Shown one piece after another: positions 2,889 to 8,186 of a DNA stretch of 9,592 bases. The notes below the pieces were generated by a model. The model saw nothing but the letters and a program-made list of their open reading frames with translations. It had not been told where the DNA came from and did not search any database. The position numbers and the translations under genes are program-made. Origin of the DNA: a virus (lineage: Duplodnaviria; Heunggongvirae; Uroviricota; Caudoviricetes); IMG/VR virus record IMGVR_UViG_2657245439_000005; one strand, 5' to 3'. How positions within the stretch are numbered: the first letter of the stretch is position 1; the number at the start of each line of letters is the position of its first letter.

Positions 2889-3251
2889 TTAATGACCTGC
2901 TGCGCGTAGTTTTTCGTCAGGTTCACCGGCAAGAGTCAGTAATTGTCCCTGGTCTTCCTGCAGAATAGTCAGGCGACCACCGCGATTGACATACATCGGC
3001 GTTTCGGTGGTGTCTTCTTCGGAAATTTTCCCGCGGTTAGTCGGGCGAACATATGAGAGTTTGTGTTTGATTTTCACACGGTTCTCATCAAATGGTTCGA
3101 TTTCCAGGTTGAGTGAGACCTTACCTTTGGTTTTCGTGTTCATCACACCGGAAGCGACTTCACTGAGAACTGCGCCGATTTTGGTTTCAAATACGCCGCC
3201 GTCCAGCTCCCCGATAAATGCCTGCACATCAGTACTGCGTTCGCTAGCCAT
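2889..3251 (-). CDS. First gene of the leftward operon, 120-aa phage protein (YfdP-like by size and position)
   Basis: Internal ATG at 3251-3249 is preceded by AGGAG (minus strand reads aggagcagcaaaATG). The longer 197-aa ORF to 3482 has no RBS and its extension looks non-coding. Confidence 0.7.
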   Translation of the reverse strand: MASERSTDVQAFIGELDGGVFETKIGAVLSEVASGVMNTKTKGKVSLNLEIEPFDENRVKIKHKLSYVRPTNRGKISEEDTTETPMYVNRGGRLTILQEDQGQLLTLAGEPDEKLRAAGH

Positions 3252-3386
3252 TTTGCTGCTCCTCATCATATCGACCCTGCAAGGTCGGTTGGTTTCTCCA
3301 CAAAACAGAGAAGAACACCTGCGGTGGCAGCCGCCCGGATGGATTGGGTTATGAGCCCGTCGTCCGGTGATGCTCTTCTCTGTTTT

Positions 3387-3434
3387 ATAAAAAGAGCGGT
3401 ACCAGCCGGAAGCAAGTGTACAAACTGGTACCGC
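3387..3434 (-). terminator. Terminator-like hairpin in the left-operon leader: 10-bp arms GCGGTACCAG / CTGGTACCGC with a 19-nt loop, followed on the minus strand by TCTTTTTAT
   Basis: Arms at 3396-3405 and 3425-3434 are exact reverse complements; the U-rich tract follows on the minus strand. The loop is large for a canonical intrinsic terminator. Confidence 0.3.
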
Positions 3435-3535
3435 CAAAGCAGTGGCTGTTGTGGTGGGGTTGTCACTCAGGCGTATGGTCAACCTGACAATCCGGTGTCC
3501 TCAACGGGGAAAGAGTAACCCAGCCATACTTACCG

Positions 3536-4916: not shown

Positions 4917-5480
4917 ATGAGGCTAACCGTGGGTAAGTATCACTGGAAAGTAGAAAAACAGCCTGAGTGGTACGTGAAAGCTGTCAGAAAAACTATCGCA
5001 GCGTTGCCGGGTGGTTACGCTGAAGCAGCTGACTGGCTGGATGTAACAGAGAACGCATTATTTAACCGCCTTCGTGCCGATGGCGATCAGATTTTCCCGC
5101 TGGGATGGGCAATGGTTTTACAGCGCGCGGCTGGCACTCACTACATTGCGGATGCTGTCGCACAGTCTGCTGGTGGGGTGTTCGTATCGCTTCCTGAAAT
5201 TGAGGAAGTAGAGAACGCCGATATAAACCAGCGCCTGCTGGAAGTCATCGAACAGATCGGGAATTACTCAAAGCAGATTCGTTCGGCAATCGAAGATGGG
5301 GTCGTGGAGCCACACGAGCAGACAGCAATTAATGATGAGTTGTATCTGTCAATTTCGAAGCTCCAAGAGCATGCAGCACTGGTCTACAAAATCTTTTGCG
5401 CTCCAGAAAAGAGTGACGCCCGCGAGTGTGCAGCTCCGGGCGTCGTGGCGTTTTGTGTCTGTGGAGAAACTAACGCATGA
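4917..5480 (+). CDS. CII-like / YdaT-family phage regulator (187 aa), in the position of e14 ymfL
   Basis: Second gene after cro. N-terminal segment (PGGYAEAADWLDVTENALFNRLR) looks like a CII-type HTH. Family assignment is from memory. An alternative GTG start at 4929 has a better SD. Stop overlaps the next gene (ATGA at 5477-5480). Confidence 0.65.
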   Translation: MRLTVGKYHWKVEKQPEWYVKAVRKTIAALPGGYAEAADWLDVTENALFNRLRADGDQIFPLGWAMVLQRAAGTHYIADAVAQSAGGVFVSLPEIEEVENADINQRLLEVIEQIGNYSKQIRSAIEDGVVEPHEQTAINDELYLSISKLQEHAALVYKIFCAPEKSDARECAAPGVVAFCVCGETNA

Positions 5481-6313
5481 ACAGTTTAACGGCAAATAAC
5501 CGTTTGTCGCAACAGCTGGTGGTCAGTGTCGCTGAACACCTGTTGTTACGGCATGAATGCAGATTACCAAATCACCTGGCTGTAAGTAACCACAGAGAAC
5601 TTTACCTGACTGTGGGGGGCGAGTTGTGCGGGAACTTAACCGCTGGTTTCGTGACGGAAGAGGGCTTTATGTCCATGTTATTCGTTGGGAACCAGAAACA
5701 CAGCGCGTTATCTATCTTCGCAAAGACTACCCGCATGAGTGCTTTAGTCCTTTGTGGAAATTCAGGCGTGATTTTGTTGAGTGTGAAGGACCACCAGCAC
5801 ATTGATTCTGCCATTCCGGGACGTTACACTGTTCAGGCACCTTATAAAGCGGGTGACGGGATTGGCGTCCTGGAAATGTTATCGGCGATATATGACGCGC
5901 CAGCGTCTTTTTTATCGTCTGCGTCTGTGCACACCCAAATTATGGTGGGCTGGACGGGGGCACCGAAAGGTGCGCCGGTTTCCGATAACGCCGGTTACGC
6001 CAACCCCGTTCAGTTCACCACCAGCGAAATTGGCGTTTCCGGTGGTGAAGGTAATTCACTGTTATCGGAGGCTGCCATCATGGCTACTGTCCCAGCCCTC
6101 ACTCGTCTGAATGATGAAGACTTACATAAACTCAGTTATGTAACAACTGCACTACGTGCTCTGCGCAAGGTAACTCTTTCGGATCCGCAGGCGCATCAGG
6201 TTTTGGTAGAAACCCTTCTTAACTTGCAGGCTGAACGTATTCGTCTGGCGGATAAGGCTAATTTTCATATTCACCGTCTCCTGAATATCAGCGGAGGGCA
6301 TCGTCATGCTTAA
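5477..6313 (+). CDS. Hypothetical protein (278 aa), unassigned
   Basis: Long ORF coupled at both ends (ATGA at 5477; 8-nt overlap with the next gene). Weak GGAG 10 nt upstream. C-terminal half has a Gly/Ala/Pro-rich linker then a helical-looking tail. The N-terminal third is ambiguous because of a competing frame (see findings). Confidence 0.5.
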   Translation: MNSLTANNRLSQQLVVSVAEHLLLRHECRLPNHLAVSNHRELYLTVGGELCGNLTAGFVTEEGFMSMLFVGNQKHSALSIFAKTTRMSALVLCGNSGVILLSVKDHQHIDSAIPGRYTVQAPYKAGDGIGVLEMLSAIYDAPASFLSSASVHTQIMVGWTGAPKGAPVSDNAGYANPVQFTTSEIGVSGGEGNSLLSEAAIMATVPALTRLNDEDLHKLSYVTTALRALRKVTLSDPQAHQVLVETLLNLQAERIRLADKANFHIHRLLNISGGHRHA

Positions 6314-6542
6314 TCCGTTGATCCTCAATATTTGCCGTTTGCTTCAGCGTAAAAAAACATCAATTCCTACAGTTGGGCAGTGGTACACCACGCCTGCAGG
6401 GCATGTTCTACGTGTTAGCCTAGTTGACCGTGAATGTCAGAAGGTGATTTGTGAACCGCTGGGCCGTAATTACCGCATCAGTATGCCGCTTATAGCCTTT
6501 TGCTCCGGAAAAAACATGAAGCATCTCGGAGGTGCAGCATGA
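6306..6542 (+). CDS. Small hypothetical protein (78 aa)
   Basis: ATG at 6306 with GGAGGG 8 nt upstream. Stop overlaps the O-like start (ATGA at 6539-6542). No recognisable motif. Confidence 0.55.
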   Translation: MLNPLILNICRLLQRKKTSIPTVGQWYTTPAGHVLRVSLVDRECQKVICEPLGRNYRISMPLIAFCSGKNMKHLGGAA

Positions 6543-7369
6543 GTATGGAGCTGATGGTTAAAGCGATGAAAATTCGAGTGGGTAATCCATTGCGAAAACT
6601 GGTTCTGATCAAGCTGGCTGATAATGCCAGCGATCAGGGTGAGTGCTGGCCCAGCTACCAGCATATTGCTGACCAGTGCGAGATTAGCAAACGTTCTGTG
6701 ATGAATCATATTGCGGCCCTTTGTGATTCCGGGCTGGTAAAAAAAGTCACCCGGAAAGGTGAAAAAGGTAACTCAAGTAATATCTATCTCCTTCATCTTG
6801 ATGGTGCAGGAGATTCACTAGGGGGTAGTGCAAATAATTCACTATCTGGTGCAGCAAATTCACCAGGTAGTGCAGGAGTTGCACCAGGGGGTGGTGCAGG
6901 AGATTCACCCAGAACCAGTCACTCTTTTGAACCAGTCAAAGAACCAGTCAAAGAACCAGTCAATGAACCAATAGCTGTTGGTGCATCTGCTGATGAGTCT
7001 GTGCGAGTTCGTTCAAACCGACCGGAATACTCTCCGGAGTTTGAGCAGGCATGGCTGGCATACCCCAAACGTGCTGGTGGCAATTCAAAATCTGCAGCCT
7101 TCAAAGCCTGGAAAGCCCGTTTGAATGAGGGGGTAAAACCCGAAACCATGCTGGAAGGTGTGAAACGCTACGCGGGCTGGGTATCTGCGATGGGTAACAG
7201 CGGCACACAATTTGTGAAACAGGCTGTCACGTTCTTTGGTCCGGATCGTCATTTCGAAGAATCCTGGGAAGTTCCTGCGGTATCTGCAGCCAGACGCGAG
7301 GACCCGTACTTCAAAGCCAGTTACGACAACGTGGACTACAGCCAGATCCCGGCAGGATTCAGGGGGTAA
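6539..7369 (+). CDS. O-like replication initiator: N-terminal winged-helix DNA-binding domain, repeat-encoded linker, conserved C-terminal domain (276 aa)
   Basis: ATG at 6539 with GGAGG 7 nt upstream (the ORF from 6500 is an unsupported extension). N-terminus (LRKLVLIKLADNASDQGECWPSYQHIADQCEISKRSVMNHIAAL) is HTH-like. The linker is encoded by DNA iterons. C-terminal WLAYPKRAGGNSKSAAFKAWKA block is typical of phage replication organisers as I recall. Confidence 0.8.
   Translation: MSMELMVKAMKIRVGNPLRKLVLIKLADNASDQGECWPSYQHIADQCEISKRSVMNHIAALCDSGLVKKVTRKGEKGNSSNIYLLHLDGAGDSLGGSANNSLSGAANSPGSAGVAPGGGAGDSPRTSHSFEPVKEPVKEPVNEPIAVGASADESVRVRSNRPEYSPEFEQAWLAYPKRAGGNSKSAAFKAWKARLNEGVKPETMLEGVKRYAGWVSAMGNSGTQFVKQAVTFFGPDRHFEESWEVPAVSAARREDPYFKASYDNVDYSQIPAGFRG
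6802..6910. repeat. Five iteron-like direct repeats (consensus about GGT(AG)GTGCA..A.TTCAC, 21-25 bp period) inside the O-like gene; putative replication origin
   Basis: TGGTGCAGGAGATTCAC occurs exactly at 6802-6818 and 6892-6908, with three degenerate copies between. Same arrangement as lambda ori iterons inside O. Confidence 0.6.
6911..6970. repeat. Tandem 12-bp repeats GAACCAGTCA(A/C)(A/T), about 4.5 copies, adjacent to the iterons
   Basis: Read directly. Encodes EPVKEPVKEPVNEP in the O-like linker. Confidence 0.6.
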
Positions 7370-7371
7370 TC

Positions 7372-7860
7372 ATGAGTCTTTTGAATGAAGTTCAGAAATT
7401 CATTGAAGCCCATCCGGGGTGTACTTCCGCAGACATTGCGGATGCTTTTGCAGATTACTCACGGCAGCGCGTTCTGCAGTCAGCAAGCAAGTTACGTCAG
7501 AGTGGGCGTGTGGCTCACCGTTGTGAAGGAGATACACGCAGACATTTCCCGCGCCTGACTGAGAGAGCGCAAGAGCCGGAACCACAACCAGTTCGTGAAA
7601 CCAGACCTGTGCGCAATTTCTATGTCGGCACTAACGATCCCCGGGTGATTTTATGCCTGACCCGCCAGGCTGAAGAACTGGAGTCGAGGGGGTTATACCG
7701 TCGTGCTGCAACGGTGTGGATGGCGGCATTCCGTGAAAGTCACTCCCAGCCAGAACGAAACAACTTTCTGGCGCGTCGTGAGCTGTGCTTACGGAAAAGC
7801 AGCAAGCGCGCTGTATCTGGTGATGAATGGTATCTGTCAGGGAATTACGTGGGGGCTTAA
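7372..7860 (+). CDS. PerC-like (ANR-type) transcriptional regulator with an N-terminal winged-helix-like domain (162 aa)
   Basis: C-terminal AEELESRGLYRRAATVWMAAFRES matches the PerC-type motif as I recall it. ATG 3 nt after the O-like stop, with a G-rich SD. Confidence 0.65.
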   Translation: MSLLNEVQKFIEAHPGCTSADIADAFADYSRQRVLQSASKLRQSGRVAHRCEGDTRRHFPRLTERAQEPEPQPVRETRPVRNFYVGTNDPRVILCLTRQAEELESRGLYRRAATVWMAAFRESHSQPERNNFLARRELCLRKSSKRAVSGDEWYLSGNYVGA

Positions 7861-8186
7861 TGACGACGTTAACTCAATGCCAGCAGCAGGTGCTGGATAT
7901 GCTGATTTCTTACCAGCAAGAACGTGGCTTTCCGCCAACCAATCAGGAGGTGGCAACCATGCTGGGATACCGTTCGGTGAATGCAGCGGTGGAGCATCTT
8001 CGCGCACTGGAGAAAAAAGGCGTCATCACGATAAAGCGTGGCGTGGCCCGGGGGATAACGCTTCATACCGCGGTGAAGGACGACGACAGCGAGGCGGTCG
8101 GGATTATCCGCTCACTGCTTGCCGGTGAGGAAAACGCCAGGCTGTGTGCAGCCCACTGGTTACATGAGAGGGGCATGAAAGTATGA
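7860..8186 (+). CDS. LexA N-terminal DNA-binding-domain homolog lacking the S24 peptidase domain (108 aa)
   Basis: Residues about 3-70 align with the E. coli LexA N-terminal domain (LT.RQQ.V.D.I......G.PPT..E.A..LG.RS.NAA.EHL.AL..KGVI.I..G..RGI.L). Start overlaps the upstream stop (TAATG); stop overlaps the rusA start (ATGA). The ORF from 7827 is an in-frame upstream extension. Confidence 0.75.
   Translation: MTTLTQCQQQVLDMLISYQQERGFPPTNQEVATMLGYRSVNAAVEHLRALEKKGVITIKRGVARGITLHTAVKDDDSEAVGIIRSLLAGEENARLCAAHWLHERGMKV

Follow-up and report, generated by a model that had tools for sequence, protein, structure and literature searches.

A DUF4222 gene and the ymfM-derived reading frame that surrounds it in an enterobacterial prophage

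In bacteriophage lambda, the Rz/Rz1 pair consists of a small gene with its own Shine-Dalgarno element (SD) and start codon lying inside a longer open reading frame (ORF), on the same strand and in another frame, with both products constrained in sequence. Two frames can also be joined by a programmed -1 frameshift, as in dnaX or in the phage tail chaperone pair G/GT, and the immI region of phage P1 has the layout c4-icd-ant. In Gifsy-1, where the order is isrK-orf45-anrP, the leader ORF (orf45) that follows isrK is translated (PMC4825925), while ymfM (SfiC) of prophage e14 is an SOS-inducible division inhibitor (bioRxiv 10.1101/2020.11.19.390815). All these systems bear on the locus described here: a 278-amino-acid (aa) ORF at 5477-6313 (+) of the IMG/VR virus record IMGVR_UViG_2657245439_000005, and a second frame, open inside it at 5626-5805 (+), that codes for a protein of family DUF4222. 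The record belongs to the Caudoviricetes, and the stretch of 9592 nucleotides (nt) that was analysed is called the window hereafter.

We call frame B the frame whose codons start at positions 1 mod 3, and frame A, which is that of the 278-aa ORF, the frame lying +1 relative to it. Frame B is closed by a TAA at 5587-5589 and open from 5590 to the TGA at 5803-5805; its earliest start codon is GTG 5626, giving the 59-aa product MRELNRWFRDGRGLYVHVIRWEPETQRVIYLRKDYPHECFSPLWKFRRDFVECEGPPAH. An initial annotation of the window had noticed this stop-free frame at 5626-5805 and a run of six G at 5614-5619, and both are confirmed by the sequence and the ORF list, the run reading GGGGGG. It had also calculated that a single inserted G would join the two frames, which is right: a G added within 5590-5625, or a -1 slip there, connects about 48 frame-A codons to frame B, for a protein of about 110 aa. 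From there it hesitated between a sequencing error, phase variation, a programmed frameshift, an overlapping gene and coincidence. It is the overlapping gene that stood, and we consider it very probable that the locus holds a DUF4222 gene with its own GTG start, with the six-G (G6) run as its SD, nested in a ymfM-derived frame, the 278-aa ORF being a concatenation of elements.

The DUF4222 gene and its probable Shine-Dalgarno element

The 59-aa peptide matches Pfam DUF4222 (PF13973) with 50.9 bits for a cut-off of 27 (E-value 1.1e-13; residues 4-52 on positions 5-51 of the 53-position profile) and phrog_1343 over residues 1-59 of 59 (E-value 2.5e-36). Two alignments agree that all the invariant residues of the family are present in it (R6, F8, D10, G13, I19, R20, E22, R27, V28, Y30, R32, Y35, E38, F40, P42 and E52). 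With such scores and homologues in 51 database clusters, coincidence does not hold as an explanation. The homologues, from Escherichia, Salmonella, Klebsiella, Citrobacter, Kluyvera and Kosakonia, are 59-72 aa long and have a common Met start; fused forms are found among the 51 clusters as singletons only (P0047 and P0048), P0048 being an in-frame N-terminal extension. By megablast, about 3000 complete E. coli genomes contain the region. One, strain 144, is 100% identical to the window over 5400-6400, and its RefSeq annotation has a coding sequence (CDS) at exactly 5626-5805, labelled “DUF4222 domain-containing protein” (WP_071593530.1); the 278-aa ORF is absent from that annotation.

Selection acts on the same frame. 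Family-wide, the ratio of non-synonymous to synonymous substitution rates (dN/dS) is 0.14-0.16 in frame B versus 1.4-2.2 in the other frames, and the synonymous sites of frame B are near saturation, not depressed (proportion of synonymous differences, pS, 0.54-0.80). We also listed the variable sites of the 5' region by codon position among 55 haplotypes of the window type: over 5626-5805, frame B has 2, 1 and 12 variable sites at its first, second and third positions (synonymous to non-synonymous changes 12:4), and the same stretch read in frame A has 1, 12 and 2 (2:14). For the 3' end of the upstream gene ymfL, the counts are 6, 7 and 35 (35:19). The overlapping gene proposed by the initial annotation is thus a DUF4222 gene carrying purifying selection. 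AlphaFold2 models its 59-aa product with a predicted local distance difference test score (pLDDT) of 87, as a small predicted beta-barrel of the SH3/Tudor-like type.

Judged from its sequence, 5626-5805 is a genuine small gene of the prophage early-right operon, and one that is already annotated. It has the same length as the DUF4222 member of K-12 e14 (59 aa), the same start residue and the same place after ymfL in the early-right operon; compared with the family, it differs by its GTG start, in place of ATG, and by an SD reading GGGGGG, in place of GGAGGG.

This difference leads to the G6 run at 5614-5619 (+), which lies 6 nt upstream of GTG 5626 and pairs with the anti-SD sequence at -9.3 kcal/mol, a value within the top 3% of all window positions. 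We compared it with 44 loci, taken as one genome per species across more than 12 genera and many Enterobacterales. The DUF4222 start codon is ATG in 37 of them, GTG in 4 and TTG in 3, and positions -13 to -8 are occupied by an SD reading GGAGGG, AAGGAG or similar (mean -8.5 kcal/mol). In the DNA alignment, the window type lacks about 18 nt (6 codons), including the ancestral GGAGGG, and its G-run originates from the conserved Val-Gly codons of frame A (GTGGGTG). The deletion would have taken the ancestral SD, so that the G-run replaced it, and it would also account for the GTG start and the GGGGGG of the window. Moreover, among 86 related loci of the window type (IMG/VR prophages and E. coli genomes), the run is G6 in 84, and the two others are substitutions (one GGGGGA, one GGGTGG), with zero length variants. 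The run is best read as an SD element, not as a slip site, an error or a phase-variation tract, and DUF4222 would start independently at GTG 5626, without any frameshift, as the pairing energy and spacing of this SD and the start position kept in the 44 loci suggest.

The initial annotation had held that a conserved G6 run together with an intact 278-aa frame would speak against the alternate frame if that long frame alone were constrained and no database protein matched the alternate peptide. Both the run and the 278-aa frame are indeed conserved; it is the alternate frame, however, that is constrained, and its peptide has matches among database proteins.

The ymfM frame in K-12 and other Enterobacterales

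In K-12 e14, YmfM is a 112-aa ORF (MNSLTTHY...) whose ATG overlaps the ymfL stop. The initial annotation had this length right and noted that the frameshifted product, of roughly 109 aa, would be close to it. The YmfM of K-12 is, however, the frame-A ORF, not a fusion, so the agreement between 109 and 112 aa is accidental, and when both candidate translations are aligned, frame A goes with YmfM and frame B with DUF4222. The K-12 DUF4222 gene is nested in ymfM in the -1 frame, has a TTG start and an AAGGAG SD, and ends 20 nt past the ymfM stop. In a K-12 record annotated by the Prokaryotic Genome Annotation Pipeline (PGAP), the DUF4222 CDS is present (WP_001250269.1) and ymfM is not listed.

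The same arrangement extends well beyond K-12. In 44/44 loci, frame A is open from an ATG that precedes the DUF4222 start by about 150-195 nt and mostly forms an ATGA overlap with the upstream stop; its own stop (TAG/TAA) falls about 20 nt before that of DUF4222, and the third frame is closed. A replication-like gene follows (about 290 aa, MSTKLT...), which lies in frame A and starts 9 nt past the frame-A stop and 11 nt before the DUF4222 stop. Such a conserved junction between ymfM, DUF4222 and the replication gene suggests translational coupling.

The two parts of ymfM evolve differently. Its N-domain, the non-overlapped part of about 55 codons, has a dN/dS of 0.27 in the main subfamily and 0.51 in the K-12 subfamily, for 1.1-1.5 in control frames; within the overlap, frame A has a dN/dS of 1.4-1.7, near that of the null frame. 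For K-12 YmfM, the AlphaFold2 pLDDT is 74-84 over residues 11-60 and falls below 50 over residues 67-112. Taken together, these values point to a ymfM tail that is held open yet free in sequence, and probably disordered. YmfM matched no NCBIfam or Pfam family. As a separate observation, the ymfM TAG/TAA of K-12 and about 40 other species is built from rare NTA codons of the DUF4222 frame, at the tightly conserved three-gene junction (L005, 2080-2438; L007-L051, about 2330-2680).

That the tail is held open can be read in the codons of DUF4222 itself. When synonymous codons are resampled, an open +1 frame is expected in 6-8% of cases; it is seen in 44/44 (53 codons, unique genes). Purine-ending Leu, Val or Ile codons are never found before a codon starting with A (0/141), for 60/209 elsewhere in the gene and 979/2139 (46%) in neighbouring prophage genes, and AGR Arg codons never follow NTR codons (0/73 versus 92/337 elsewhere in the DUF4222 gene). 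The sites where a stop could arise toggle between T and C among loci. Leu31, which stands before CGN and serves as an internal control, is mostly CTG; in the P4-type DUF4222 genes, which lack an upstream ymfM, the domain contains 4 stops in its +1 frame. We considered that the openness of frame A could be a by-product of the amino acids of DUF4222 or of a codon-pair bias; the resampling, Leu31, the flanking genes and the P4-type genes all reject it.

The absence of stop-creating synonymous codons thus indicates that selection holds the ymfM frame open. At the level of sequence, the frame would be selectively kept open across DUF4222 in many Enterobacterales, with a tail unconstrained in its own sequence, and what matters would then be either translation through the overlap, perhaps with termination-reinitiation coupling to the replication gene that follows, or the mere presence of a tail. 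The likeness with lambda Rz/Rz1 is that of a nested out-of-frame pair with both frames maintained; the difference is that, at the DUF4222 locus, the outer frame is open but unconstrained in sequence, and predicted to be disordered, in its overprinted part.

The 278-aa ORF of the window and competing explanations

We propose the following account. In the usual layout, that of K-12 e14 and many Enterobacterales prophages, ymfM starts at the ATG overlapping the ymfL stop with a conserved N-domain of about 55 aa, continues in the +1 frame across nearly all of DUF4222 as an unconstrained, predicted-disordered tail, and ends 9 nt short of the replication gene, whose ATG is in frame with it. Three changes would then have occurred in the window lineage: the 18-nt deletion that removed the ancestral SD, with the G-run taking over; the loss of conserved residues from the ymfM N-domain, which no longer has detectable coding constraint; and the replacement of the junction between the ymfM stop and the replication gene by a cassette controlled by isrK and C4 RNAs, with frame A extending to 278 aa.

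In the window, ymfL (4929-5480, +; CII-like, Pfam Phage_CP76; WP_000521508.1 in strain 144) ends with a TGA at 5478-5480 that overlaps the frame-A ATG at 5477 as ATGA (gcATGAaca), a context found in most loci; the ORF list has a further ymfL ATG upstream, at 4917. As in e14 YmfM/SfiC (phrog_1170), frame A begins with MNSLT... at an ATG lying on the ymfL stop, is homologous along its length and has DUF4222 nested in the -1 frame; it differs by the residues lost from its N-domain, by its 6 deleted codons and by its length, 278 aa for a family of 108-118 aa. Its first part, 5477-5625 (+), coded in frame A only, aligns with the YmfM family as a degenerate homologue of the N-domain: Q12, H42, V49 and G50 are retained, and the near-invariant P17, G20, Y29 and A45 are lost. 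The phrog_1170 profile matches only aa 47-98 of frame A, that is, the part overlapping DUF4222. Over 5481-5625, frame A has 7, 9 and 8 variable sites at the three codon positions (synonymous to non-synonymous 10:16), a test of low power with its 24 sites. With these residues lost and no codon periodicity, the first part of this long ORF resembles a degenerate ymfM, within the limits of that low power.

Further on, the stop of the YmfM family is missing because the downstream junction differs, and frame A runs 508 nt past the DUF4222 stop. It passes two RNA genes into a 77-aa gene, so that the 278-aa ORF (5477-6313, +) is a composite rather than one gene, made of a ymfM-like 5' part, a tail overprinted by DUF4222, isrK-like and C4-like RNAs (the “Ash domain”) and the 77-aa gene. 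RefSeq/PGAP annotation of near-identical DNA is inconsistent: two loci (L002 and L004; 1578-2729) have a single “Rha family” CDS of 382-383 aa from the ymfM ATG, spanning DUF4222 and both RNA genes, and a third (L003) is instead annotated with DUF4222 (1727-1906) and a shorter Rha CDS (1836-2723).

The first RNA gene, at 5837-5913 (+), is an isrK-like small RNA gene with an intrinsic terminator (stem at 5894-5907 followed by a T-run); it matches Rfam RF01394 over its full length with 55.4 bits for a gathering threshold of 50, and a terminator scan independently found its terminator-like site. The second, at 5938-6025 (+), is a C4-type antisense RNA gene (Rfam RF01695, full length, 82.8 bits for a gathering threshold of 45). 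Among 8 loci, 7 of the 27 predicted pairs of the C4 RNA show compensatory double changes and zero are broken; for the isrK-like RNA, covariation is weak (1/15 pairs). The isrK/C4 pair is found in all the sister loci tested that are annotated with Ash or Rha, and not in K-12 or main-type loci. We also noted a P4-like satellite (L135, 1937-2236) in which a 99-aa DUF4222-domain gene stands directly upstream of a primase gene, with the isrK/C4 pair and an Icd-like gene present; DUF4222 genes thus recur just upstream of replication genes in two types of elements.

The two RNA genes are coextensive with a match to Pfam Ash (PF10554, Phage_ASH; 63.5 bits, above gathering) covering aa 117-210 of the 278-aa ORF, i.e., nt 5825-6106, where the RefSeq label is “ash family protein”. 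Polymorphism after 5805 was scored on 31 haplotypes: 5806-6079 has no coding signature (25, 28 and 10 variable sites by codon position; synonymous to non-synonymous 17:58), and 6080-6313 has a clear one (7, 2 and 13; 13:9). The sequence-level picture is that the “Ash” protein-family signal may largely reflect conserved RNA. A separate “Ash” protein starting at 5735, 5768, 5774, 5777 or 5783 was not assigned, the SDs being all weak and the region without coding signature.

The 77-aa gene of frame A (6080-6313, +) is preceded by an SD reading GGAGG (6067-6071) and shows this coding-type polymorphism. It occupies the icd/anrP position after the C4 RNA, and the upstream ATG 5942 the position of an orf45-type leader; its N-terminus, MATVPAL, is common to Icd-like and Rha genes found downstream of C4 in sister loci. 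The 77-aa ORF belongs to no Pfam or NCBIfam family, and phrog_4908 (123 aa) corresponds to the longer form, 5942-6313. The window thus resembles Gifsy-1 isrK-orf45-anrP and P1 c4-icd-ant by its isrK-like RNA with terminator, its C4-type RNA, its leader ATG at 5942 and a gene with a strong SD; it differs in that the downstream gene is the 77-aa ORF, not a Rha/Ant antirepressor as in sister loci, and in that the leader ORF is fused to it in frame. A 78-aa gene (6306-6542, +; phrog_1153; 11, 9 and 25 variable sites) comes next, directly upstream of the replication-like gene. Its residue pattern recalls DUF4222 (W[FY]..G..V.V....QKVI); a paralogy with DUF4222 was considered and is not supported (hhalign probability 1.8%, and only a weak PHROG cross-hit).

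The explanation that competes best with a nested DUF4222 gene in a composite frame is true dual coding, where the 278-aa polypeptide, or a long product from ATG 5477 coupled to the ymfL stop, would be made and functional, DUF4222 being a second gene nested in it. ATG 5477 has a GGAG SD (-6.4 kcal/mol) and its ATGA overlap with ymfL, selection holds frame A open across DUF4222 family-wide, and the leader ORF that follows isrK in Gifsy-1 is translated (PMC4825925). Several of our observations, besides, weigh against the reading we prefer. All 86 related loci have an open frame A, whichever of three downstream module types follows (Ash, Rha or another), and its length of 243-387 aa varies accordingly; in 8 diverged loci, indels within isrK-C4 have lengths of 3n and leave the frame open. 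The long frame may, for these reasons, still be translated. All candidate internal “Ash” starts are preceded by weak SDs; the loss of constraint over 5481-5625 is judged on those few variable sites; GTG starts are rarer than ATG; and the stop-avoidance counts come from phylogenetically related sequences, so that Fisher P values are overstated. What speaks against dual coding, however, is that frame A has neither periodicity nor synonymous excess in 5481-5625, 5626-5805 or 5806-6079 (10:16, 2:14 and 17:58, as given above), that the ORF contains an intrinsic terminator and two structured RNA genes, that the conserved residues of the YmfM N-domain are gone, that the equivalent tail of YmfM is predicted to be disordered and that the RefSeq annotation of strain 144 lacks the ORF. 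On balance, we hold dual coding to be unlikely.

A programmed -1 frameshift, or transcriptional slippage, on G GGG GGC (5614-5620) was the idea favoured by the initial annotation and would produce 48 frame-A codons followed by DUF4222, about 110 aa in all; it now appears very improbable. Read in frame A, the heptamer has the formal pattern X XXY YYZ and lies at a place where two open frames meet, as programmed -1 sites do; frame B is open from 5590, and one NCBI singleton (P0048) does extend DUF4222 N-terminally in frame. Unlike such sites, however, the heptamer does not accompany the gene pair wherever that pair is conserved: it is absent from about 40 main-type or K-12-type loci, which read GTGGGTG then GGAGGG and keep the same start and SD, and it is broken by the GGGGGA and GGGTGG variants. 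No strong structure is seen at the canonical spacing of 5-9 nt, where only a 4-bp hairpin lies, at about 8 nt; the main hairpin starts 24 nt after the run (overall z-score -1.9). Frame B has its own conserved SD and start, homologues without the G-run keeping a Met start and a GGAGGG-type SD, and several loci have a frame-B stop 3-9 nt before the start. In one locus (L136), a DUF4222 gene of the same allele type immediately follows a Rha gene, without the ymfM N-part, a part that has no detectable constraint in the window clade in any case. Finally, there is no conserved fusion product, the fusions being singletons among the 51 clusters.

As for a homopolymer sequencing error or a phase-variable tract, with G7 or G5 as the true or alternative length, base-calling errors can occur in G6 homopolymers, as can slippage in short G tracts, but the constancy of exactly G6 in 84/86 independent assemblies, the two exceptions being substitutions, together with a DUF4222 gene and a conserved start both intact with G6, excludes it for all practical purposes.

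A few other features of the window and its surroundings are worth recording. The HTH/DnaD-like replication gene contains, at 6929-6970 (+), 3.5 copies of a 12-nt tandem repeat, GAACCAGTCAAA, coding for EPVK repeats; somewhere in 6400-7372 the window lacks 12 nt relative to strain 144, which may correspond to a difference in repeat copy number. The 119-aa protein encoded at 7827-8186 (+) is limited to a LexA DNA-binding domain (Pfam, 68.9 bits), without peptidase domain, and stands at a position that holds an N6-adenine methyltransferase gene in strain 144. At 2889-3482 (-), overlapping ORFs occur in two frames, and the strain 144 counterpart is annotated as a frameshifted yfdP pseudogene.

Annotation of the locus and the SfiC question

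For the window itself, what was suspected to be a frameshift or a sequencing problem becomes an ordinary annotation, that of a DUF4222 gene that has a ribosome-binding site of its own; the 278-aa ORF should not be annotated as one protein. More generally, two public traditions of annotation read one stretch of DNA in two frames, as ymfM for K-12/EcoGene and as DUF4222 for PGAP, and selection maintains both. The annotation of the DUF4222 gene was already known; less ordinary is the finding that the ymfM frame would be held open by selection across DUF4222 throughout the Enterobacterales.

Functional data for the locus are limited to SfiC filamentation and were obtained with constructs that carry both frames. 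In the ymfM papers, the cloned DNA was “the ymfM ORF” or a larger fragment, and the second frame was not considered (bioRxiv 10.1101/2020.11.19.390815). The cloned ymfM ORF includes codons 1-53 of DUF4222 and its SD, and the shotgun clone includes DUF4222 as a whole; our search of a literature library found no paper linking ymfM with DUF4222 or mentioning the nested ORF. Every ymfM clone or deletion so far also carries or removes DUF4222. As a tentative proposal, which we would rate as possible rather than probable, ymfM/DUF4222 may be a conserved same-strand dual-coding locus in which only DUF4222 and the YmfM N-domain are constrained as proteins, SfiC filamentation may be wholly or partly due to DUF4222, and the ymfM tail would perhaps be only a conduit that couples ymfL to the replication gene.

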